A stretch of DNA of 64,000 nucleotides from a virus (lineage: Duplodnaviria > Caudoviricetes): IMG/VR virus record IMGVR_UViG_3300036546_000248; one strand, 5' to 3'. A program made the position numbers and the translations under genes. Below the pieces are notes generated by a model, which was not told the origin of the DNA, searched no databases, and saw only the letters and a list, made by a program, of their open reading frames with translations. Below are positions 3,905 to 61,580 of this stretch, piece after piece; within the stretch, counting starts at the first letter, position 1; every line of letters begins with the position of its first letter.

Positions 3905-6814
3905 ATGCCACTGTCCATTGAAGAGATGAAGGCCCAGATCGACTTGGTTCGATTCAATCCTTCAGCCATCTGCCAAGTGGCACTGGATGTGTTGGAAGAA
4001 GTCAATACAGGTACTCGCCTGATTGTTGATCCCTCCAACCCGTTCATGTTCCTCTTGGAAGCCAGTGCGGTCAACGCATCAGCTGCGATGTCTTGCTTTG
4101 CCGATTACAGCCGTAAACAATACGGGGTGATGGCACAAGATGAAGACGAAATCTACATGCACATGTCGGACAAGGATTTCTTGGGTCGCTTTGGTAATCC
4201 GTCGTCCACTACCATGGTGATGCTGCTGAGCCTTGAAGAAGTAAAAGCCAAGGCTATTCAGACCGAATTGACCAACACCCGGAAGTTGGTGATTCCTCGC
4301 CACACCACGTTCACGGTTGCCGGTTACAGCTTCATGATGCAATACCCGATCGAGCTACGGGTGATGAGCCACGGTGGCTTGAACGTGTTGCACGATGTCA
4401 GCCGCAAGTCACCGTTCATGAGTCTGGAAACAAATGTGGTGGAACATGAGATCGTCAACATCGACGGCACTGTGTTCATTTGCATTCAGATCCCGGTGTT
4501 GCAACTGAGTTCTGATATCTACTACCCCAAAGTGTCTATGGGTACTTTGACGGAAGCCACGTATACCTTCTCCGGCCAGTTCCATTTTGCTAGGGTTTAT
4601 CGGTCGTTGGAGAACGGTGAGTGGGAGGAGATGCAAACCACCCACAGCGCCCAGGTCTTTGATGTCAACACCCCTACAGCTGTTCTGAAGGTGTACGAGC
4701 AATCGGTTCGTGTGAGCATCCCTCTTGTGTACCAAGCCAACGGGATGGTCACTCGTGAGCTGCGGGTTGAGATCTACAGCACCAATGGCGAGATCAACCT
4801 GATCCTCAACAACTACCCACCGAATGCCTACAACGCGATGTGGTTGGACTACGACAATGACGACGATGGTCGTTACGTGGCGCCGCTGAAGACTTTCAAC
4901 GCCATCTCGGTGTATTCGGAAGCGACAGTAGCGGGCGGTACCAACAGCATGTCCTTTGATCAAGTGCGGGAACGTCTGATCAGTACGGCTTTGCGTGAAC
5001 AACAACTGCCAATCACCAGTGTTCAGTTGGGCGCGACCTTGGAAAACGCCGGTTTCAGCGCCGTGGTCAATACTGACTACGTCACTCAACGCCAGATCTT
5101 GGCTACACGTACACTCCCCACCCCTGAGGACCTCAGTGTCTATACAGGAATGGCTTCCACTATGGGGATGCTTCAGTGTACGGCCGATGAGATTCGTAAT
5201 CTCCACGGTGTGTATGACAACAACAAACGGCTGACCCTGACACCTAAGGTGTTGTACCGTAACACCGATTCGTTGTTGACCATCATGCCGGAAGCGACCG
5301 TCCAAGGACTCGAAGCGCTGCGTGTTACTGATCTGTTCACCCAAGAAGTCAGTGGAAAGAACTACCTCTGGTCGCCGTTCTACTACGTCTGGGGTTTGGC
5401 CGGTGATTACTTTGATGTACGGGCTTATCACTTGGATAGTCCAGACATCACGTCCAAAGCGTTTGTGGAGGAGAATCCGACGCTTGGGTTGGTGGTTGCA
5501 ACCGACTCATACGCCATTGAAAAAGTGGCTGCGGGCTACCGTGTGGTGGTGACAACTCGTTCAGGTCCTGTTTATAAAGAGCTGGATCTGGAACAACGTC
5601 ACGTGGTCTTGAGTTTTGAGGCACCGAATGAAAACGGCCGAGCATCGTTGGCCGGGACGCTGTTGTACGTAAACGAGGAAACCAGTGAAGCTGCGTATGA
5701 GTTCTTGGTGGAAACGCAGTACGATCTGGATGAAGAGCATCACCTGATCGTAACGAACTTCACTATCTTCGGACAAGTCCAGCCTTGCGGTATTCGTCTC
5801 AAGGACAAGTTCACGCTGGTCTATGGGGTGAGTAACTACCAAACGCAAGACATGCAGTTCACTGACATGGATAAGTTGACGGACACCACCTTGGTACCGG
5901 CCAGTCACTATGCGATTATCCAAGAAGAACTCAATTTTGTTTTGGGTTATTCGCTGGACCGTTTGTGGACCAATGGTCGTAGTGTGGTAGGTAGTGAAGG
6001 CTATCTGACATACGAGACTGATGTACCGGCCTTGTACGAAGCCACGCAATATCGCCGTGATCCTGTCACCGGCAGTTACGTCATTCGCATGGTAGATGGT
6101 CAACCGGATTTCGAGATCCTCCACAATATCGGAGACCCGGTGTTGGTCAATGGCGAGCCTCAGTACGCACACCGTAAAGGTGATTTGGTGTTGGACAGCA
6201 ATGGGCAACCCATTGTAGCCAGTCCGCGTAAAGTGGTACGTCAGGTGGATCTGTTCCTGGTGGATGGTCTTTACTACTTTGCCGACGATGAAACCACGTT
6301 GACCTATACCCGCTCCATTCCGAATACGGTGGTTGGGTGGTTGGAAAACGATATCACCATGGCATCGAAGAAGATGCTGGAACTGACCGACCTGTACTTC
6401 TATCCACAACGAACCACAGGTTATGTGGATGCGCTGGTCTTGGAAGGCTTTGAGATTCGCTTGGAGGTTGAGCAGGCGCTTCACATTGAGCTGTACATGA
6501 CCAAGAGTGGGTATGAAGATCTTCCGTTGCGAGCCTCTATCGAAACCAGTATCTTGGAGATTCTGGCCGATGAGTTCAAACGGGATACGGTTCGTTGCAT
6601 CGACATCGAAAACCGAATCATTGCGTCTGCTAAAGACCAAGTGATTACGGCGATGGTGTCAGGGTTGGGTGGCTCCAGTAACTACCGAGTGGTAACGCTG
6701 GTCGATCAGTCTGCACGCTTTGGCATTCGCAAAAAGCTGCAGGCCTTGGCCGACGGTACCTACTCGGTGGTGGACGATGTCACCATCAGCTTCCTGCGAC
6801 ACACCAACGCATAA
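3905..6814 (+). CDS. Large virion structural protein (phiKZ gp87-like, possibly baseplate)
   Basis: About 969 aa; AAGGGGG RBS before ATG 3905; synteny. Confidence 0.65.
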   Translation: MPLSIEEMKAQIDLVRFNPSAICQVALDVLEEVNTGTRLIVDPSNPFMFLLEASAVNASAAMSCFADYSRKQYGVMAQDEDEIYMHMSDKDFLGRFGNPSSTTMVMLLSLEEVKAKAIQTELTNTRKLVIPRHTTFTVAGYSFMMQYPIELRVMSHGGLNVLHDVSRKSPFMSLETNVVEHEIVNIDGTVFICIQIPVLQLSSDIYYPKVSMGTLTEATYTFSGQFHFARVYRSLENGEWEEMQTTHSAQVFDVNTPTAVLKVYEQSVRVSIPLVYQANGMVTRELRVEIYSTNGEINLILNNYPPNAYNAMWLDYDNDDDGRYVAPLKTFNAISVYSEATVAGGTNSMSFDQVRERLISTALREQQLPITSVQLGATLENAGFSAVVNTDYVTQRQILATRTLPTPEDLSVYTGMASTMGMLQCTADEIRNLHGVYDNNKRLTLTPKVLYRNTDSLLTIMPEATVQGLEALRVTDLFTQEVSGKNYLWSPFYYVWGLAGDYFDVRAYHLDSPDITSKAFVEENPTLGLVVATDSYAIEKVAAGYRVVVTTRSGPVYKELDLEQRHVVLSFEAPNENGRASLAGTLLYVNEETSEAAYEFLVETQYDLDEEHHLIVTNFTIFGQVQPCGIRLKDKFTLVYGVSNYQTQDMQFTDMDKLTDTTLVPASHYAIIQEELNFVLGYSLDRLWTNGRSVVGSEGYLTYETDVPALYEATQYRRDPVTGSYVIRMVDGQPDFEILHNIGDPVLVNGEPQYAHRKGDLVLDSNGQPIVASPRKVVRQVDLFLVDGLYYFADDETTLTYTRSIPNTVVGWLENDITMASKKMLELTDLYFYPQRTTGYVDALVLEGFEIRLEVEQALHIELYMTKSGYEDLPLRASIETSILEILADEFKRDTVRCIDIENRIIASAKDQVITAMVSGLGGSSNYRVVTLVDQSARFGIRKKLQALADGTYSVVDDVTISFLRHTNA

Positions 6815-6817
6815 AAG

Positions 6818-6861
6818 GCGGCATACAGGGAGGCCGAAGCCTCCCTGTACTTTTATGCCGC
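6818..6861. terminator. Bidirectional intrinsic terminator with TTTTATGCCGC box
   Basis: TACAGGGAGGC-CGAA-GCCTCCCTGTA between convergent genes; UUCG loop on the minus strand. Confidence 0.85.
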
Positions 6862-10080: not shown

Positions 10081-11544
10081 ATGTCGCTGCCCGTACCTAG
10101 CGAGAATATTAAAGGCATTGAATGTAAACACGCGGTTTACACACTGCCGAATGACGATGGTGATGGGGATGCCCTGATCGTCAAAGAAGTCATTCACACC
10201 AAAGACGGTCAATTGATCCCGAACCTCAAGATCATCGAAAACTACAAGCGCGATTTTTTCTATGCGCGTGAAGGTCAACGTAACTATACAGAAAAGAAGA
10301 CTCAAGAAAAAATTAATAACCTGCAACGTTACACCTGCACCCAACGTAACCTGCTCAGACAGATTGCGCGGGCTAAAGGGGTGGGTACTTTGCGTGGGGG
10401 TTTGCGTCAGATTGCACGCGACCCTTATTTGTACGGGTGTGACATCACCACACCCACGCTCCTTAAACGTGAATACCAACTGCGTTCTCCAGATTGCTTG
10501 TCCCCCAATGGCGTAGCGGTATTCGACATCGAGACGGATGTTGTCCACGGTACTGAACAACCCATCCTGATGGCCTTGACGTTTAAGGACAAAGTCTACC
10601 TGGCTGCGACCAAGTTCTTTGTAGGTCAAGACGTTCGCTTCTTGGAAAAGCTTAACAAAGCCATTGAAAAGTACTTGGAGAAGTACACTAAAGAGCGCAA
10701 CATTACCTACGAACTGGAGATCGTTGAGACACCCGGTGAAGGCATTCGGCGTTGCTTTGCCAAAGCCCACGAATGGAAACCTGAATTCGTCACCATCTGG
10801 AACATCGACTTCGATATCCCCAAATGCGTCAAGCAATTGGAAGCTGAAGGAATTGATCCAGCTCAAGTTTTCAGCGATCCATCGGTTCCCGAGCGCTATA
10901 AGTTCTTCCGCTACAAGCAGGGCAACGCTACTAAGAAAACCGCTTCGGGTCGAATCGATTCGATTCACCCAGCCGAACGGTGGCACGTAGCCGAATGTCC
11001 AGCGACGTTCTTTCTGATCGACAGCATGTGTGTGTACAAGCGTATTCGAATGGCTAAGCAAAACCTGCCTTCGTACAGCTTGGACTACGTAATGAAGGAG
11101 GAGTTGTCGGGGCTTGGTAAGCTTAAGTTCGAAGAGGCCGACGAATATGCAGGGTTGGCATGGCACGTGTTCATGCAGACCTATTACAAAGTCGAATATG
11201 CGGTCTACAACATCTTCGACTGTATCGGTGTAGAACTGTTGGATGAGAAGACCAAAGACTTGCAGCTGGTTATCAGTACCCAGTCGCGGGCTTCGGAATA
11301 CACCATCTACAATTCGCAACCTCGTCGTTTGGTGGATGACTTCTATTTCTTCTGTCGTGACCGAGGCTATATCCTAGGTTCGTGTAGCAACGAAATGGTC
11401 CATGAATTGGACGCTTACGTTGTTGGCATGAATGGACACATCGTGACCTTACCCTCTCACCAGACAGTGGATAACGGCGTCCGCGCTATTAAAGAACTGC
11501 CTGATGTAAGGACCTACATTCGTCGTCACGTAGCCGACTTGGAT
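10081..11544 (+). CDS. Split family-B DNA polymerase, N-terminal gene (phiKZ gp82-like), exon 1
   Basis: Exonuclease motifs FDIETD, WNIDFD and YNIFD; ends VADLD at the start of polymerase motif A. Confidence 0.88.
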
Positions 11545-11901
11545 TAATTAAAAGTCCCTTCAGACTGGAAGGTCTGAATGTAAACTCTTCTAATTGCTGG
11601 AAACCCCTGAGAGCTGTTCCACCACTGCGAGGCGAAAGCCAAAGCCACGGTTTGAAAACGGAACGGATTGGGCAACCGTGGGTCCTAAGGACCCCTTTAG
11701 CAGCCAAGCTCCTCTATGCGAAAGCAGTGGAGAAGGTTCAACGACTATCCCGCAAGGGAGTAGGGACAAGCGTCCCGAAACGGAGAGCACCCGACCCACC
11801 GTATGGTGAAGGGTGATGATATAGTCTCGGCATGTGGGGAAAGCCCACAGCAGTGCTTGATCGCACGGGGTAAAGTGTTGCGACTTAACCCGAAGATACC
11901 G
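11545..11901 (+). mobile_element. Group I intron (IA2-like, ORF-less, 357 nt) in the DNA polymerase gene
   Basis: 5' exon ends in U; P1 GGAU/GUCC with a U-G pair; P AATTGCTGGAAA; Q TAGCAGCC; P7 GACTA(11743)/TAGTC(11822); P3 CTCTTC/GGAGAG; P7.1 and P7.2 hairpins; terminal G11901; splicing restores DLD-IVSTYPN. Confidence 0.92.
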
Positions 11902-40510: not shown

Positions 40511-41900
40511 CTTTGATGTTTCTGCTATGTGAACCAACTTACACAACTGGACTTGTTGTAAACTGATTTAATCTACCTAAAGCCCATGGGGTGTTATAAA
40601 CGAATGCCCACGGACCTACTTGTCGAATGACATCCTTCTTAAGGGTTGTCGTTACAGCTTTCTTACTCAGACCTTGAGTGGTGTGGAACAGACTGGCGCT
40701 CTTAAACACCGAGACTTCGCCCGTCACCACATTCTTGGCCAACACTTCTTTAGGACCTCTACCCAAAGCTCGATCCAAAGACTCTTGGTCGATTTCGGGC
40801 AAACCTTCTTCCTTATACGCACAGACATAACGTTTGTTAACCAAACGCAAGACATCGCCTCTGGACATACATTGGAAGATGTGGCTGGGAAGTGCATCGA
40901 TAGCACGCCCTAAAAGACCCATCGAAGGGTATTCCTGAACTTCGTTGGTCTGGATATCTAAACACAACACTGGTCGTGAAGGCTGTTGACCCAGACTATC
41001 CCTTTCACGGATACGAGCTTTGTGAAGCTGTTCGGGGATTCTATCCTTTGTTCCATGGTGGGTGAGTACCCACCCATCGATAGGGATTCCTTCCTTAATG
41101 TGCTTCCAAATCACCTCAGGTTGATACCCGAAGTGCTCTCCCGCATGGAACAGGTCTCGGAGGAACATACACACACCGTCCTTATCAGCCAAAATCCGCG
41201 GACGTGATTCTGACTTAAAGAGTGCAGCGTGTATATTGTTAACCTTAACCGTTGCCCATTCGAGGTTTTCTACGTCGTTATTGGTACAGTCTCCATCGAT
41301 GTGGTTCACTGTTAACTGACTAACGTCCCTATCCCACGGTAAGTGTGCCAAGGCCACCATCCGATGAACGCCGAACGTTGGCATACTGCCATCCAACATT
41401 CTAACGTTAACCGTGATGTAGCCGTCAAGGTTGACGTAGTAATTCTTCTCAACGCCTTCGGAGTCAAAGATCCTACCGCACCGAGAAGCCATATACCCGT
41501 CAGTGCCCGGTATGATCTTCAAATCCATAACGTATCCTTTTCTTTATTTACACATAGCAGAAACGCACGAGTCGTTAATTCGTGGTTACCTGTGGTCCAG
41601 ACAGATAACTTCCTCACTTTCATGAGGCGGTAGACTATATCTTCTTCCAGTTTCCCAGAAGCTCCCTGTTTCGAATGTCACTTGACACCCTACTCTACTC
41701 GGTTCGTCTCTCGACGCCTTTCGATAGTCGTTGAACCTTGTCCGTAACTTGTCTCCCGACAATTTGTAGGACCTTGGCTGCTGATTGTCCAATCTCGATT
41801 CTTTTCAAACCATGACGTTTATCGTTTCCGATTCCGCTTTGGTGAACCAAGCTCTAAGGAGTTTCCAGCAATTTAAGGAGTTTAATGACGGCAATACTCT
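40511..41900 (-). mobile_element. Group I intron (IA2-like, 1390 nt) carrying an HNH endonuclease
   Basis: P1 UGACGGU/GCCGUCA with a U-G pair; P10 AGAGUAUU/GAUGCUCU; AAUUGCUGGAAA; AAUCAGCAGCC; P7 GACUA/UAGUC; terminal G; 14-bp inverted repeat (41551-41564/40518-40531) loops out the ORF. Confidence 0.95.
40539..41528 (-). CDS. Intron-encoded HNH homing endonuclease (NUMOD4-HNH)
   Basis: VHRMVALAHL...VNHIDGDCTNNDVENLEW; NUMOD4-like N-terminus. Confidence 0.92.
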   Translation of the reverse strand: MDLKIIPGTDGYMASRCGRIFDSEGVEKNYYVNLDGYITVNVRMLDGSMPTFGVHRMVALAHLPWDRDVSQLTVNHIDGDCTNNDVENLEWATVKVNNIHAALFKSESRPRILADKDGVCMFLRDLFHAGEHFGYQPEVIWKHIKEGIPIDGWVLTHHGTKDRIPEQLHKARIRERDSLGQQPSRPVLCLDIQTNEVQEYPSMGLLGRAIDALPSHIFQCMSRGDVLRLVNKRYVCAYKEEGLPEIDQESLDRALGRGPKEVLAKNVVTGEVSVFKSASLFHTTQGLSKKAVTTTLKKDVIRQVGPWAFVYNTPWALGRLNQFTTSPVV

Positions 41901-43157
41901 ACCGTCAAAATCAGCATTCATACCCCCTAGTACTAGGACTGATAAGCTCACTGTATTGACGTTGATGTCTTCACTCTTGATGCGGGTGACGTACAGGCGT
42001 TGCGCCGACAAACGGGTCAACGTAGGGTTACGTTGGAAGATTACCGGGATGCCCTTACGAGGCGATTCGGCGATCATTTCCTTGAAGATCTCATCGATCA
42101 GAGGATGGTACCGCAAGGTGTGTTCGAACAACAGCTTGTTGATTTGCTTGGGCGAATACCCACGATGGAGCAGTTTGGCCGTCAGGTGAGTTTTGAACAC
42201 CATGATGGACAGGGACCACGGGAGTTCCAGTTCCTCATGATGGTGTTGGTCTGAACGCGAGGTGATTACAGCCCGGAAGCTGAAATGGTCACGAGAACCA
42301 AACACGTGTTTACGCCACCAACCTGTTTTACTACCCAACTGCGCACCGATGAACGGGGCATAGTACTCAGATAGCATCACGATGGCCGTGACGGTACGTT
42401 TCTCGATTTCCTCTTGGCTCAGTTTGGTTTGACTGTGCACAATGCCGCTGATGGTGTAAATCGCATCAATGGCAGGGCGCATGGTCAGGTCACCGTACAG
42501 GCCTGTAGCTGCCTTCTCGATGATGAACGCCGCTTTCGACGGGATGGGCACCTTATGGCTGAAGATCAGATCGCGGTACAAAGCAATGAAAGTGCGTAGG
42601 TATTCCACCTTACGCTTCTTCTTATTGTCGTACAGCGGCCCTTCCTCCGAGCACATCAGTTGCATGATACTGTCGAAGTTGTGGTAGAAAGAATTCAACC
42701 CCCGCTTATACCCTTGTGCCGAAAGGCTTTGGGTGAAGAACTCCATCTTCTTATTCGGTGGGCGATATCCCGGATTGATCAACCAGTCCAGTAGACTGAC
42801 GCTCTTGATCGTCATCTCGGACTTCAAGATCACGTAGACCCAGGGGTTGATCAGACGTTCTACCCCTTGAGGGGCAGCAATCCACAACAACGCCTCCAGC
42901 GGCCGTTCCGTAGAAGGCAGGCAGAAGTGGTTACAGATTGGACAACGTACGCCAACGTTGTACTGATACTTCAGGTAGCCGCAATCGCATGAAGGTACGA
43001 TATCAAGCGACTCACCAGTGTACTTGGTGATTGCGAGGTTGTGGAGAGCGTCTCGGTCCTCTTTGCTGTCGATTTGATAATCGTTAATGATGAGCGGTAC
43101 GCTGGTCAGTGAATCAAATAGCTGATCGTGGTTCACGATCTCTGCACAGACACCCAT
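41901..43157 (-). CDS. nvRNAP beta-prime N-terminal subunit (phiKZ gp55-like), exon 1
   Basis: Zinc finger CDC...CPIC, FSFRAVI, RNPTL and NADFDG; spliced product is 476 aa. Confidence 0.92.
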
Positions 43158-43232: not shown

Positions 43233-45230
43233 TTAGCGACCCCAAACACCGCTGAACGCCTGGTTCCCGAAACGGGTACCGTAGTTCGGCTGGATCGCGC
43301 CCGAGGACATCCAGTTACCCAGGTTCGGGTTGACCAGCTGGCCTTGGAAGGTGTAGCCACCGCGAGTTGCACCCTGATTGAACGAATCAACCATGTTGCC
43401 CGGACGTACGGACAGACCGGCTTCTTCGATCGAATCGCTCAGAGCCTTGATGAACTGCTCGGAGAAGGTCACGCGACGCGCGAAGCCCTTGACCACGACG
43501 CTGCCGGAGAGCAGGCGATCGATGATGGTCTTGCGCTCGTGCAGACGCACAGCCAGCGGGATGTTGCGATCGAGGTGAGTACGCTCCCACTTCTCCACCA
43601 GAGTCGGATCGTCCTTGCCAGCCAGGTTCAGGATGGCGAGGTAGTCCAGCTCACGCAGATCACGCAGGTGACCGTCGCTGTTGGTGTAGTAGCCCAGGTG
43701 GATGCGGTCAGCATCGTCGAAGCACACCGGCGCATCGAACGGGAAGTGCTTCTCGAAGCGACCCAGGGTCAGGCGGTTGGCCGCCATCAGGATGCTCTTA
43801 CGCGCGTCTTCGTTCTTGTTCGCCGCAGCGATGAAGGTCTGCTGCAGCCAGCTCAGTTCACCAGCTTCTTCGATGTCCAGCGTGTACAGTAGCTGCTGGT
43901 TGAAGAACATGCTCATCATCTGAGCAAACTGCTGGTCACCGAAGTTGGTGGCCGAAGTGTCGATCTTGTTGCCCGGTTGACCAGGGTTGGCCGGGTCCTT
44001 GATCTCGTAGCCGATGGCGCCGATATCGCGGAGGTTGATGCCCTTGCGAGCGTTGGCACCTTCCGAGTACGCCTTGAGCGGACGACGGAAAGCGTTCCAC
44101 CAGTTGCCACCACGACCCAGCTGTACTGCAGTCGACAGCGCCAGGAGTTGGAGTTCCATGGACACGACATCGGTCAGTGATTCGACGGAGGTCAGTACGA
44201 GGCGAGGCTGGTACATCACACCCGGCATCATCTGCTGCGGCTGCATCATCGGGAACATGCCGAATTGCTGCTGAGCAGGTTGTTGCGGGTTGTACATCAG
44301 ATCGACGTAGCCGGTCACACGGGTCAGTTCACGCGGAGGACGCATGTCCAGACCTTGGGTGTCGGCGTTGTTGCTGGCGCTGACGGTCAGCTCGATGTCT
44401 TCGCGAACCGGCAGGCCCACGATGTTGGTACCATGAACCGAACCGTACTCGGAGCGAGCGGTCAGGATGTCCTTCTCGCCGAACTCGGCCAGGGTGAAGG
44501 GCGGAGCCTCGGCACCCAGCTTCAGATCCAGCACAGCCCAGACGGCCTGAACGCTGTTGTGCAGCCAGTCTTGGAAACGCTCGACCGGAATTTCCTTGTC
44601 GATCTCGGTCGGGATCACGGTGCAACCGGCATCATGCACTTGGGCATTCACGCCGAAGGTGTCGATCACGAACTTCTTCACGGTGTCCCAGTGGGACTTG
44701 TGGTTGTAGATGTCGCTCGGTGCGAAGATCGTTTCGATGGTGTGGCCATCGATGGTGGTGATGTTCGGCTGCAGCGGACGGCCAGAACCTTCGATCATCA
44801 GGTCGTAGACGCCGATGTGGGTTTGACCCTGATGAACTTCCTTCATGCACACGAGGATGCTGGAGTAGTTCACTTGCAGCTGGTTGCTGTCCAGCACCAG
44901 GAAGCGGAAGGCTTCGAGGGTCTTGGTGTCCATGACACGCTTGGCGCGTTCCAGGAGACCGTCGTGGATCTTCTGAACGGTTTCACCGCTCATGTTACGG
45001 CTGACGAGGCCGCGGTGCTGGCTGTTCACGTTCATGATCGAACGGCCGGCCTGGCCCACACGGGCGGAGGTATTGGTGTTCATGGTGGTCCCTCCCGATT
45101 CCGGGATCTGCTGCTGTTGGGGTTGGGGAGCAGGTTGAGCCTGCTGGGTTTCGTTAGCGCCCAGGCCAGCTTGACGCATGGCATCGGCCAGGCTGCCGTT
45201 GGATTTCCCGCTATCGCGATTGACACTCAT
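43233..45230 (-). CDS. chmA: Chimallin, phage nuclear shell protein
   Basis: 665 aa from MSVNRD (GAAGGA RBS); Q-rich N-terminus; RDIGAIG...IDTSATNFGDQQF, RDLRELDYLAILN and FIKALSDSIEEAGL resemble 201phi2-1 gp105 as recalled; directly upstream of the gp55-like gene. Confidence 0.88.
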   Translation of the reverse strand: MSVNRDSGKSNGSLADAMRQAGLGANETQQAQPAPQPQQQQIPESGGTTMNTNTSARVGQAGRSIMNVNSQHRGLVSRNMSGETVQKIHDGLLERAKRVMDTKTLEAFRFLVLDSNQLQVNYSSILVCMKEVHQGQTHIGVYDLMIEGSGRPLQPNITTIDGHTIETIFAPSDIYNHKSHWDTVKKFVIDTFGVNAQVHDAGCTVIPTEIDKEIPVERFQDWLHNSVQAVWAVLDLKLGAEAPPFTLAEFGEKDILTARSEYGSVHGTNIVGLPVREDIELTVSASNNADTQGLDMRPPRELTRVTGYVDLMYNPQQPAQQQFGMFPMMQPQQMMPGVMYQPRLVLTSVESLTDVVSMELQLLALSTAVQLGRGGNWWNAFRRPLKAYSEGANARKGINLRDIGAIGYEIKDPANPGQPGNKIDTSATNFGDQQFAQMMSMFFNQQLLYTLDIEEAGELSWLQQTFIAAANKNEDARKSILMAANRLTLGRFEKHFPFDAPVCFDDADRIHLGYYTNSDGHLRDLRELDYLAILNLAGKDDPTLVEKWERTHLDRNIPLAVRLHERKTIIDRLLSGSVVVKGFARRVTFSEQFIKALSDSIEEAGLSVRPGNMVDSFNQGATRGGYTFQGQLVNPNLGNWMSSGAIQPNYGTRFGNQAFSGVWGR

Positions 45231-45292
45231 CAGTTTATTTCCTTCAGGTTTGTTTGCGCAAACAACCCACACATCGGTGAGTATTCCAATGG

Positions 45293-46932: not shown

Positions 46933-46969
46933 GCTAGGGAGGGGCGACCCTCCCTAGCTTTTATGTCGC
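46933..46969. terminator. Bidirectional terminator with TTTTATGTCGC box
   Basis: GCTAGGGAGGG-GCGA-CCCTCCCTAGC. Confidence 0.85.
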
Positions 46970-49132
46970 CGTTTCCCACTCTTGAACGAAATCACTCACC
47001 AGCTTGGTGTTGTTTCCATTCACCAAGAAGATCCCAAGGGCTTCAAGGATGAGGTAGAACGGCCGAACGGTTGAGTAGACAAGTTTACGGATGTTCATTG
47101 CTTGCACCACTTCTTTAGGCAATCCTCGACGCTCCACATTGTCCTTGGGGAGGAGTAGTGTAGTCATTCCAGGTTTGTTGGCGAAGTGCTTGGCAATTTT
47201 AGCAGCAACCTCCGGGTTTTCAATAGAAGCGATCCATTCCTGAATGGCTGTCTTGTTGGAAAGATCTAGCGATACCTTAATGGCTGGGTAGGGTAGCTCA
47301 GGAGCGTCCCCATAGTGCGGGGCAAAGATATCCTGCCAATACACGTAATGTTGATACGGGGACTGGCTCGGGTTGGTGTAGGAGTTGGCCGTCTTAACCG
47401 ATGAACGGGCCAAGTATTCAGACTTACCTTTAACCACAGAGTCGATAATACCGAGTTCGATATTGGCAATTTTGCGGTAAAGGTCAATCATCGAGATTTG
47501 TTGGTCTGCGATGACCGTGTCCATGATCTCCTTGATGGTCTCCGTCACCACCGCCATAATCTGTGGCGGACAGTTCGAGTCCTTCAGGTAAACCCCTTTG
47601 ATCTCCTCCTCGAGGTGTTTGAAGACGTTGCCTTCTCGTGCTGCCTTGTAGGCGAAGTAGTGTTTAGCCATAGAAGTCAGACCGAACACCGAGAATGCAA
47701 ACTCATTCTTCATGGCCAGAACGTTCAGCTTTTCGGGAATAACACCCAAGATGGTCGACAGTTTAGCCAAGACATGGATAATTGACTGAGATGCCAAGTA
47801 CACCATGGTGTAGTTGATGCTAAAGGCTTCTTCGCTGAAGTCCACCTTGCCCAAGTACCACTCCACCCAGTTCTCTACCGCAAAGATCGTGGAGTCCGTA
47901 TCAGAGGTGATTGCCACATGACGCATGGAGTTACGAATCCGTGCGACGGATGCAGGGACGTTGTCCGTTACCCAAAACGCCTCGATCAACAACGCGTATT
48001 GCTCAAGGGTTTCGATAACCTTCTTCGCAAATTCACCCATGACGCAGATGCCATGAATGTCGTTAGCATTCCCTTGTTCAGCCGACTCCTGTAGTTTCTT
48101 CAGGGTGCGTCCGTCCAACTCTTTGGCACAGATCAAACTGACGTAGGCTTTAAGGTCATTGTCCATCCCCTTCACATAAACCTTGGCATCTGTGTATGAC
48201 AGGGTGGTGCCGGTAGGTTTGCTGGACATGATTTGGAGGAAGGTGTGTACGAAGGTTGGGTTGTACTTTGCCAGATGCCACATGTCGCCTACGTAAACAA
48301 AGGCTGCACGTTCTAAGGGTTGGAGACCCTCTACCAACTTACGGACTTCCAACTCCTGCTTATTGTTACGCCAGTAATGGCGGGTACTGTAGAGGATGAC
48401 ATCCATAACCTGATCGACACTGGGGATTGTCAACCCGTAGGTCTCTACTGCTTTGCCCACCAGGTTGTAGTCGACATGACCGATGATGGAGGTGATGTTA
48501 GCCAAGACCACATCAGGGGCCCAGTAGTGACGATTACCCGCCAAGAACTTCTCGTTGTTGGCATTACCGTAACTTGTAGCTACACGGCAGGTAGACGTCA
48601 AGCTGGAGTGGGCCGACTTATTGTAGAATATTGTTGAAGCCGAAGCTTGACCACCAGAGATCGAGTTGTTGGCGATCTTGTACGTGGACTGTTCGTTCTC
48701 CTTAATGTCCGCCACCACCATATTACCCGCCATTTTAGCATCGAAGGCCTCGTCTTTAACCTTAGCGCGACCCTCAATGTTACCGGTAACGTAGATAGAG
48801 AGGAGCGACTCTCGGCGATTGGGGTTCTCGTATACGGTCATGGCAGGCGAGAACAACAACCTACGGTCTTTGATGTTGTTAAGGTATTCGGTGTACGTTA
48901 GGACCTTTTGTTCACGGTCACCGTTTTTATTACGGGCCAGGTGCAGAACTTCTGGATCTTTGATCTCCAAACGACCGCCACGTGCCGTCACTTGGTTAAC
49001 CCAGGCCTGACAAACCTCAAGAGGTTTACCGGTGCGCTTGGACAGATAAAGAGCCATGTCACTGCGATAGTTTCCCAGCACATCCAAGTCACGGTTGTAA
49101 TGGCTGGCGGGCTTAATGAATGCATTGTTCAT
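46961..49132 (-). CDS. Split family-B DNA polymerase, C-terminal gene (phiKZ gp50-like)
   Basis: Motif B KIANNSISG and motif C SDTDST. Confidence 0.88.
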   Translation of the reverse strand: MNNAFIKPASHYNRDLDVLGNYRSDMALYLSKRTGKPLEVCQAWVNQVTARGGRLEIKDPEVLHLARNKNGDREQKVLTYTEYLNNIKDRRLLFSPAMTVYENPNRRESLLSIYVTGNIEGRAKVKDEAFDAKMAGNMVVADIKENEQSTYKIANNSISGGQASASTIFYNKSAHSSLTSTCRVATSYGNANNEKFLAGNRHYWAPDVVLANITSIIGHVDYNLVGKAVETYGLTIPSVDQVMDVILYSTRHYWRNNKQELEVRKLVEGLQPLERAAFVYVGDMWHLAKYNPTFVHTFLQIMSSKPTGTTLSYTDAKVYVKGMDNDLKAYVSLICAKELDGRTLKKLQESAEQGNANDIHGICVMGEFAKKVIETLEQYALLIEAFWVTDNVPASVARIRNSMRHVAITSDTDSTIFAVENWVEWYLGKVDFSEEAFSINYTMVYLASQSIIHVLAKLSTILGVIPEKLNVLAMKNEFAFSVFGLTSMAKHYFAYKAAREGNVFKHLEEEIKGVYLKDSNCPPQIMAVVTETIKEIMDTVIADQQISMIDLYRKIANIELGIIDSVVKGKSEYLARSSVKTANSYTNPSQSPYQHYVYWQDIFAPHYGDAPELPYPAIKVSLDLSNKTAIQEWIASIENPEVAAKIAKHFANKPGMTTLLLPKDNVERRGLPKEVVQAMNIRKLVYSTVRPFYLILEALGIFLVNGNNTKLVSDFVQEWETAT

Positions 49133-52879: not shown

Positions 52880-53084
52880 AGGTTAATCCTTTCTTTAAAG
52901 GGGTCGGCCACTTCACTAAGATGTTATAGGTTTGAAACTTCTTAGGATGCGTTACAAGGGGTTCTCTATAAAATACGTGGTCAGGTATTGTTTAACAGAC
53001 GAAAACGTTATCTGGCGCTTCCTAGAGGGCTTATAAAGGATTTAAGGAAAAGGCGGCATAAAGGGAGGGGCGAACCCCTCCCTC

Positions 53085-53490
53085 TACACCCCACCTTCTG
53101 GGTGGAAAGGAGTAAACTGACCGGCCTGGTAACGTACGAAGACTTCCCCTTAAGCAGCCCTGTACCTACCAGCGATGTTCTCTGTACGACACAACACCGT
53201 TCCCGAGTCGTTGTTGCATCAGAACATACACCAGCCTCGTTCACCCACTGAAAAACCGCTACCCCGCCCTACGGATTGTAATAACTTTGCTCGCTCCACC
53301 GTGCGCAAACAAACAAATGAACGGTGGCAAAGTCCGGGTCACTTCTGTATTCATCCACACAGCTTTCACCGAGACCCATAACTCGGTTATCCGTACACAC
53401 GGAGCAGCGCCATAGACGTTGCCAGCGGAGAACACTCGGTGTTAATCCATTGTCCGTGAAAGCCAACGGATTTTTTTTTTCAGTACCGAT
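53085..53490. ncRNA. Candidate large structured ncRNA (about 400 nt)
   Basis: No credible ORF; nested long-range stems; flanked by terminator hairpins 53062-53083 and 53531-53548. Confidence 0.5.
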
Positions 53491-53565
53491 TAGATCGCAT
53501 ACTATAGGGCAAAGCCCCGAGAAAAAAAAAAGGAGGCCGAAGCCTCCTGAGGTTTTTGTGCCACC

Positions 53566-57020: not shown

Positions 57021-58001
57021 TTACAGAACCAAACCGTCGTCTTGTGCTTCGTCCAGATCCACGATCTTGCGGGTCTGTACGCGGCTATCGCGACGAGCGT
57101 TGTAGTCGTTACGGGTTTCCTCGAGCTTCTCGTAAGTCGCGCCGAGGTGTTGGGTCGAGATCACGAAATGGATCTCTTCGATGTCCTGCACCTTGTGCTG
57201 GAAGTAACCAGTTGCCGAGTAGTCCGGCACCGGATCGGTAAGATGCGGTTGGTCACGATCAGCGTAGAGGCTGGCCACCGAGATCGGATCGGTGATGCTC
57301 TTGGCCGACTTCTGGTCGATGAAGATGTCCAGCAGCGAGAGCTGCGGCGCCACTTCGGTCGAGTGGTTGTAACGCAGCCAGTGACTGACGTCTTTGGTAT
57401 CCAGCTCGGCATTCTGACGCGAAGCCAGGTACGACAGGCAGGAGGTAGCGAACGCCAGCTTTTTGTCCACCGCGCTGCGGGTGTTGTCGCCACCGTTGTG
57501 CAGGTAGTAGGTCACGACAGGGGCCGATTCCTTCTTACTGATAGCCGCCAACGATTTCAGGGTGTTGACGGTGTTGTTGGCAGTGATGTTCGATTCCGAA
57601 GAACCGGCAGTCAGTACCACGACCGGCAACCCGCGCGCCAGCAGTTCGGAGACGATCAGCGGACCCAGAACAGAACCCGAGCCACCGGAGGCCGAGAACA
57701 CGACGATGTTGAACTCACCAGGCTGCTGCGATTGCAGGATGTGCTTGATGGAGCTGGAGATCTGAGCGTGGTTCTCACGACGCACCTTACCGGAACCGTC
57801 GGTGTTGTCGAGGATGTAGATCTTTTCCTCGGGGATTTCCGGAGTCAGGTTGGAGCGACTGGTGTCGATGAACGCCGGATCGATCGCAGCGAACCCATCA
57901 CCTCCCTGACTCTTCAGGTAGTTTGCAGCGAAATTGACCCCGAGGCCCCCACACCCAAAAATTCGAACGGTACCGACACCAGAAACGTTTTTATCGCTCA
58001 T
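57021..58001 (-). CDS. phuZ: PhuZ phage tubulin
   Basis: GCGGLG, IDTS, GSGKVR, SGGSGS tubulin signature; C-tail IVDLDEAQDDGLVL. Confidence 0.93.
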   Translation of the reverse strand: MSDKNVSGVGTVRIFGCGGLGVNFAANYLKSQGGDGFAAIDPAFIDTSRSNLTPEIPEEKIYILDNTDGSGKVRRENHAQISSSIKHILQSQQPGEFNIVVFSASGGSGSVLGPLIVSELLARGLPVVVLTAGSSESNITANNTVNTLKSLAAISKKESAPVVTYYLHNGGDNTRSAVDKKLAFATSCLSYLASRQNAELDTKDVSHWLRYNHSTEVAPQLSLLDIFIDQKSAKSITDPISVASLYADRDQPHLTDPVPDYSATGYFQHKVQDIEEIHFVISTQHLGATYEKLEETRNDYNARRDSRVQTRKIVDLDEAQDDGLVL

Positions 58002-61105: not shown

Positions 61106-61580
61106 GTTAAGTGTTGGCTCGTTGTTGTTGGTTCACTTACACCCCAACTCCACTGGAGGTTACGTTGGTTAGGTGCTTGTGTTTAATAGGGTTAGTTAAC
61201 AGTAGAGACGTAAAAGGTTTTTCAAAAGCATAGGAAGGGAATCTTCGATTCCCTGCTCTTTAGCCCCCTTTCCCCCGCCAGTTCATGGCCTTTACGCTAC
61301 GCTCCAAGACCATTCACGCGAGTGAAATGGGATTGGTTTAGCTGTCAGTCAGTCCTAGTATCTCCGCTTACGCTTCGCTACTACTCCTTCCTTCCGCTTT
61401 TATGTCAAAGCCATACCGAAGTAATGTAAAAAAATACTGACACAGGAAAACAAGACTAGATAACCCTAAGAGATACCCCAGAGGGGATCTAAAAAAGCAA
61501 ACATTTATCTATGCCCCGCCGCCCCGCGCTGCCCGCCGGCATAACCGGGCGCAACGGCCGAAGCCGCCCGCCCAGCCTAC

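Follow-up and report, generated by a model that had tools for sequence, protein, structure and literature searches.

Trans-acting base-pairing sRNAs such as RNAIII of Staphylococcus aureus and GcvB of enterobacteria carry C/U- or G/U-rich seeds that are directed against translation-initiation regions; GcvB targets C/A-rich enhancers. The RNA gene analyzed here resembles both in that it is predicted to specify a stand-alone RNA whose unpaired pyrimidine/GU-rich seed is complementary to C/A- or purine-rich sequence in or next to a ribosome-binding site. It differs from them in being phage-encoded and putatively aimed at the phage's own nuclear-shell mRNA, in displaying the seed on a near-invariant and probably double-pseudoknotted scaffold, and in having neither sequence or Rfam similarity to them nor an intrinsic U-tail for Hfq. 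By this analogy, the assignment that is slightly favored is a base-pairing sRNA with a looped seed that is a member of no Rfam family.

ROOL and GOLLD are large, pseudoknot-rich structured phage RNAs of unknown function that often lie beside tRNA islands (PMC12286853). The element described here is likewise large and, by prediction, pseudoknot-rich, and two groups of its homologues (groups B and D) share the tRNA-island habit. Different from ROOL and GOLLD, it has no Rfam match even at E values up to 10, its module 1 measures only ∼250 nt, its periphery is not conserved, and a loop complementary to an mRNA can be identified. When the locus was first annotated, ROOL and GOLLD were mentioned for comparison; the likeness holds for the tRNA-island context of distant homologues and for nothing else. 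The sRNAs of phiKZ and 201phi2-1 are ncRNAs of the same phage family; they are short (<250 nt), mostly derived from 5′UTRs and without known targets (PMC8244752, PMC11512511). The present element differs from them in size and origin, and its models R1 and R2 match nothing in either phage.

The minus-strand RNA gene and its boundaries

The window, that is, the whole stretch of 64,000 nucleotides analyzed, belongs to an uncultured phiKZ-like jumbo phage of the nucleus-forming kind. All the Chimalliviridae markers are present: chimallin (ChmA), PhuZ, a split RNA polymerase with a subunit gene also on the minus strand, and a phiKZ-type DNA polymerase (Table 1). The candidate RNA sits in a 690-nt gap between two minus-strand genes of unknown function, which encode 140 aa (upstream) and 173 aa (downstream). 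The window also contains two group I introns (Rfam RF00028) at 41611–41910 (-) and 11535–11850 (+), the former splitting the RNA polymerase subunit gene next after chmA.

Table 1. Positions of the RNA gene, its parts and related features in the window.
Feature	Position	Strand	Remarks
chmA, nuclear shell protein (chimallin), predicted regulated gene	43233..45230	-	PHROG 4795, E 2e-107; PF25677 in homologous loci
Predicted target in chmA 5′ leader: 16-nt palindrome + AC	45248..45265	-	paired part 45260-45248
phiKZ-type DNA polymerase	46961-49132	-	
3′ hairpin (53104-53092) and terminator hairpin, then TTTATGCCG	53054..53104	-	18 double changes in terminator
Whole predicted ncRNA gene, ∼440 nt including terminator	53055..53498	-	414-439 nt in homologues
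Module 2: three-way junction, apical loops GGGAA (53204-53200) and SD-like UAAGGGG (53152-53146)	53110..53246	-	
Module 1	53256..53441	-	
8-nt junction with conserved A and C, then invariant core CCGUAGGnCGGGGUAGCGG	53256..53282	-	
P4 arm presenting U-rich loop, covarying stem	53283..53334	-	60-110 nt long in other lineages
Predicted antisense segment GUUUGUUUGCGCA	53302..53314	-	perfect complement of chmA leader -30 to -18 (complement search)
ACCCG, predicted partner CGGGGU (one bulged G)	53335..53339	-	invariant in all groups
Multibranch: P1 enclosing H1 (53422-53404), H2 (53403-53390), H3 (53387-53368)	53340..53441	-	
H3 loop (RYGG), predicted pseudoknot with CCGU at 53274-53271	53374..53381	-	100% pairable
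5′ hairpin P0, variable, group A only	53445..53471	-	88% of cells paired
TATG late-promoter motif, predicted +1 = G at 53498	53498..53501	-	invariant in 10 homologues
Terminator of upstream 140-aa gene: UUCG hairpin and U run	53522..53548	-	kept in homologues; insulates RNA gene
PhuZ	57021-58001	-	

Syntenic loci were gathered via the two flanking proteins, yielding ten distinct versions of 55–95% identity that constitute group A. As judged from these sequences, the gene-free stretch encodes a real, conserved structured minus-strand ncRNA. The last G of TATG, the consensus of the phiKZ late promoter, serves as the start site in that phage (PMC4666361), and a transcript would begin here at the corresponding G. 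At the other end, the downstream terminator followed by TATGCCG is invariant among the homologues, and the downstream gene carries its own conserved promoter-like leader.

The strand was evaluated from base pairing and stability. When the model helices are read on the minus strand (P1a and H3 rows excluded), 106 cells hold G-U and 25 hold A-C; the single-sequence folding z is -2.3 for the minus strand versus -1.2 for the plus strand, and the minus strand gives the more stable fold in every homologue. The initial annotation had taken the G-U pairs to favor the plus strand and the flanking terminators and TATG site to favor the minus strand; all three measures contradict the plus-strand reading. 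The fold of the single sequence is barely above chance, and the case for the RNA is a comparative one. A coding function was rejected: the 65-aa minus-strand ORF, the translation of which had been named at the outset as grounds for giving up the RNA, is disrupted by stops or frameshifts in every homologue below 95% identity, and substitutions are spread evenly over its codon positions (115/111/134). Since the TATG and the terminators are kept, the G-U bias favors one strand and the 65-aa ORF collapses in the homologues, the locus is read as a minus-strand RNA gene of ∼440 nt. In sequence terms it constitutes an independent non-coding transcription unit, with a conserved TATG, conserved terminators and no conserved ORF.

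Two related features were noted. The leader of the 173-aa gene, at 52880–53004 (-), is 77% conserved, more than most of the periphery of the ncRNA, and contains an invariant middle-promoter-like element at 52997–52985. The sequence TTATGCC(G/T), which takes the place of a U run behind the terminator hairpin of the candidate RNA, occurs eight times in the window, at 6853, 12172, 23187, 30207 and 55339 on the plus strand and at 61544, 55017 and 53061 on the minus strand.

Architecture and distribution of the RNA

All the sequence words quoted in the initial annotation were found at their given positions, and the large structured RNA of two modules that it envisaged is borne out by strong compensatory change among the ten syntenic homologues. 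The CTTTG/CAAAG and CCACCGT/ACGGTGG stems are paired in 98–100% of homologue cells, ACCGAG/CTCGGT in 98% with covariation in four of six pairs, and the inner helix ATGTTCT/AGAACAT in 77% with 20 double changes. The two closing helices, ACTGAAAAA/TTTTTCAGT and TGGGTG/CACCCA, do not hold, each being paired in just 54% of cells across the homologues.

Module 1 starts with P1 around H1, H2 and H3, which is followed by ACCCG, the P4 arm, the 8-nt junction and CCGUAGGnCGGGGUAGCGG. Within group A, 99% of its cells pair and two-sided change occurs in 10 of 29 pairs. This covariation exceeds that in all 500 shuffles and all slid controls; kinship inflates the comparison with the shuffles and is retained in the slid controls. 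In the joint alignment of all lineages, which was fitted to the model and is thus biased towards it, 16 of the 29 pairs covary, and the last pair of P1 varies with the lineage among C-G, U-A and A-U. The core shows 91% identity, versus 53–56% in the flanking parts. Two crossing pairings are predicted. In that of the H3 loop with CCGU, U is faced by A or G and G by C or U in every case, with no two-sided change, and the putative ACCCG–CGGGGU pairing never varies. The core of module 1 is near-invariant and, in the model, probably double-pseudoknotted, and as a new RNA fold it is worth structural study.

The invariant core (18 nt, the most conserved part) is not accounted for by antisense pairing; only catalytic or docking readings explain it. 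The core might be a new ribozyme for self-processing of RNA operons or for cutting a paired mRNA, with the peripheral arms as passengers or guides. Such an enzyme could account for the ∼35 near-invariant nucleotides in the predicted double pseudoknot amid freely varying peripheral helices, for the fixed-length junction with its conserved C, and for the position of the element at the head of polycistronic tRNA arrays in group B. However, no ribozyme in Rfam matches, no candidate scissile site is identifiable and the group C element is a unit placed directly before a terminator, which makes catalysis improbable. The predicted core topology also differs from that of HDV, twister, pistol and hammerhead ribozymes. 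Under the favored assignment as a base-pairing sRNA, the core would instead provide stability or a docking site for a protein or the ribosome.

Module 2 shows two-sided change in 31 of 44 pairs, has conserved GGGAA and UAAGGGG loops and is absent from the loci outside group A. It comes after a U-rich linker, and in group B the same linker leads into a tRNA. Because of this restriction to group A and the run of the linker into a tRNA, module 2 may be a separate RNA; it is probably co-transcribed.

More distant members, which share module 1 and belong to uncultured nucleus-forming phages, were found by an exact search for the core motif, so that the invariance of the motif in groups B, C and D is partly built in. 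In group B the element leads tRNA arrays and is again preceded by a homologue of the 140-aa gene; in group C it occupies the same PhuZ-to-polymerase interval, with a terminator directly after it. A borderline member (L050) is located in a tRNA cluster. Groups B and D are both co-located with tRNA arrays, whereas the element of this window has no tRNA island. A model built from group A only scores group B at 32–48 bits, compared with 12–18 for chance carriers of the motif, and the joint model scores group C at 44–45 bits and L050 at 26, compared with less than 20 for chance carriers. The element is single-copy, model R2 matching once per carrier genome.

Several searches delimited the family. 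Relaxed core patterns retrieved from IMG/VR only chance matches of 11–13 bits or coding DNA, and the single match of the core pattern in GTDB, in a haloarchaeon, was set aside as apparent chance. When sequences of all four groups (A–D) were compared by BLAST with 50,697 records of cultured phages, only terminator or chance matches were returned. Models R1 and R2 and the core pattern have no match in 17 cultured nucleus-forming phages, so the element is not a core gene of the Chimalliviridae. The initial annotation had recognized no family, and the Rfam 15 search agrees: there is no match at gathering thresholds (ROOL, GOLLD, OLE, RNase P, tmRNA, SRP, 6S, group I/II introns, riboswitches and small ribozymes included) and only chance hairpin matches at E up to 10, and ARAGORN was negative. 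Resemblances to motifs of RNase P, tmRNA, group I introns, HDV, TPP, cobalamin and c-di-AMP RNAs were dismissed, as the matching letters are not conserved in the homologues. A reverse-transcriptase template RNA of the retron, DRT or telomerase-like type was rejected, PF00078 being absent from five carrier genomes, one of them complete; an rRNA mimic or anti-rRNA was rejected as well, since identity to E. coli rrnB is at shuffle level and the complementary runs are short or G-U-rich. The literature searched describes neither this RNA nor RNA control of chmA. The element represents an uncatalogued RNA family.

The loci of the distant groups hold further features of note. Downstream of the element, amid normal tRNAs, lie tRNA-shaped RNAs in which structured inserts of 50–100 nt replace the anticodon arm (L038:7141–7267 onward; also L033, L035, L048 and L053). 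In subgroup B1 only, the element is followed by a Shine-Dalgarno sequence and a conserved hydrophobic ORF of ∼50 codons (L033, ∼4800–4950 (-); L034, L035, L039, L044 and L048). Hammerhead-like words (CUGACGA ... GAAA) occur ∼300 nt upstream of the group C element (L036, ∼11000–11066 (-); L037 and L060), with no Rfam match and no evident stem III.

The U-rich loop and the chmA leader

On the minus strand the P4 loop, previously read as a AAACAAACAAAT loop, is rich in U, and it is likely an antisense element. Because it is single-stranded yet invariant in group A, it was suspected of having a partner, and its complement was sought across whole genomes. A complement was found on the sense strand 8.04–8.06 kb downstream of the element in all three other genomes searched; in the window this position falls in the chmA leader, and the complement there is the longest perfect one in the 64 kb outside the RNA gene. 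Pairing of the loop with the tmRNA resume site was also considered; its match to chmA is the longer one. Among the 86 leaders of the window, that of chmA ranks first (-19.9 kcal/mol versus a median of -6.8), and its perfect run of 13 compares with at most 9 in the others. The predicted pairing ends 3 nt before the chmA Shine-Dalgarno. The target site is identical in seven group-A leaders while their flanks differ, and a loop variant in two loci (L023 and L027) keeps the pairing through G-U.

The contrast with group B was tested after the chmA idea had been formed from group A. In subgroup B1, UUUC repeats make up the loop and GAAA repeats the chmA leader; the two can form 15 bp that include the Shine-Dalgarno, and chmA ranks first of 24 and first of 22 leaders. 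Exchange of partners across lineages fails, the group A loop reaching -6.7 on the B leader and the group B loop -8.4 on the A leader; this covariation of loop and leader rests on the single contrast of A versus B, both partners being essentially invariant within group A. A conserved unpaired seed facing a conserved complementary site is thus present in groups A and B1 and weak in B2, where chmA ranks 4 of 24. In group C, P4 lacks a comparable loop, and the sole match, of 11 bp, comes from another segment. B-type loops may hit many mRNAs, since ribosome sites with the purine-rich AAAAGGA abound in these phages. From this complementarity it is considered likely that the RNA binds the chmA leader.

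Since a 16-nt palindrome contains the group-A site as one of its halves, it was also considered that the loop mimics half of an operator in the chmA leader and titrates a DNA- or RNA-binding regulator, or that the element acts at the DNA level. Eleven nucleotides of the group-A palindrome recur in the loop, and perfect palindromes of 14–16 nt precede chmA in groups A and C as well as in LucasX, RAY and Moabite. Mimicry is nonetheless highly improbable: the loop fits the complement of the 3′ side of the palindrome plus flank (13 nt) better than a copy of its 5′ side (11 nt), group B leaders have no palindrome and their loops are still complementary, and the strong G-U strand bias and the framing by promoter and terminator speak for an RNA.

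The chmA match could also be incidental, with the element acting as a stable RNA of the tRNA-island type. It would then serve as a decoy or sponge, the U-rich loop being bait for U-specific ribonucleases, S1 or Hfq and GGA loops being bait for CsrA, or form a multimer, as do ROOL and GOLLD with their RNA-only cages. In favor of this are the tRNA arrays next to the element in groups B and D, the fact that RNA-targeting defences are those that reach nucleus-forming phages (PMC13282480), and the two GGGA apical loops of module 2. On the other hand, a decoy leaves the unique 13-nt match and the lineage-matched switch of loop and leader unexplained, the GGA loops are without the A of ANGGA in most members, and no conserved kissing-loop pairs were found for a multimer. 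This explanation is improbable too.

Possible control of nuclear-shell synthesis

The chmA leaders carry TATATTAC, which is taken to be an early-type motif, in contrast to the TATG of the RNA gene. The RNA would most likely be made after the early chmA mRNA, as a stand-alone RNA transcribed mid or late in infection by the phage non-virion RNA polymerase. Module 1 would fold into a compact, nuclease-resistant scaffold, with the P4 arm displaying the loop, pyrimidine-rich and single-stranded. Once exported to the cytoplasm, the RNA would use this loop to base-pair in trans with the chmA mRNA at its translation-initiation region, directly ahead of the Shine-Dalgarno in group A and across it in group B. 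The duplex would block 30S loading, and nuclear-shell synthesis would be turned down once the nucleus is built. On the sequence evidence, a trans-acting antisense repressor of ChmA translation is somewhat more probable than the other readings taken together.

Alternatively, the RNA may bind the chmA mRNA and not repress it, opening the leader hairpin, stabilizing the message or tethering it, for instance to ribosomes or the shell, so that ChmA synthesis is promoted or localized. The group-A site is the 3′ arm of the leader hairpin and stops short of the Shine-Dalgarno, and the large invariant core and the SD-like module 2 loop suggest extra docking functions. However, the leader hairpin of group A is weak and does not hide the Shine-Dalgarno, and the B1 duplex covers the Shine-Dalgarno itself; activation or tethering is quite unlikely, and repression remains the preferred sign of the predicted effect.

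ChmA is indispensable to the phage nucleus, and the literature searched does not deal with what limits its synthesis after completion of the shell. In phiKZ, antisense 11-mer oligomers directed at the Shine-Dalgarno of chmA abolish both ChmA synthesis and the formation of the nucleus (PMC12571901); a phage RNA with the ribosome-binding region of chmA as its target would be the natural counterpart of these synthetic molecules. It would also supply a precise and testable mechanism for one of the numerous structured orphan RNAs in jumbo phages. A more far-reaching view, unlikely as it stands, is that nucleus-forming phages control their shell through a dedicated RNA class encoded in the PhuZ-to-polymerase interval. 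The invariant core would then be an active device, a ribozyme or one that docks to the ribosome or shell, which an exchangeable guide loop would steer to the chmA mRNA; unrelated RNAs, that of RAY for example, would act on chmA likewise.

The perfect palindromes of 14–16 nt are located 35–50 nt upstream of the chmA start in five lineages (window 45250–45265 (-), L130, L076 (LucasX), L078 (RAY) and L079 (Moabite)). They are unrelated in sequence and absent in group B, and are possibly an operator or an RNA dimerization site for control of the shell gene.

Right after phuZ, other nucleus-forming phages carry putative RNAs not recognized as members of the family by the models. In Erwinia phage RAY (L078:1075–1230) and in AH06 (L095:20–190), a TATG-led, terminator-bounded RNA of ∼110–150 nt is located there. 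A U/C-rich loop of the RAY RNA is perfectly complementary over 10 nt to the ribosome site of RAY chmA, the sole such site in 12 kb, and AH06 keeps 9 of the 10 loop bases; the RAY match opens a cultured laboratory system for the idea of an RNA acting on chmA. After phuZ in Serratia phage Moabite (L079:1045–1370) lies a TATG-led, gene-free stretch of ∼300 nt that ends in a terminator, a candidate ncRNA of another family.
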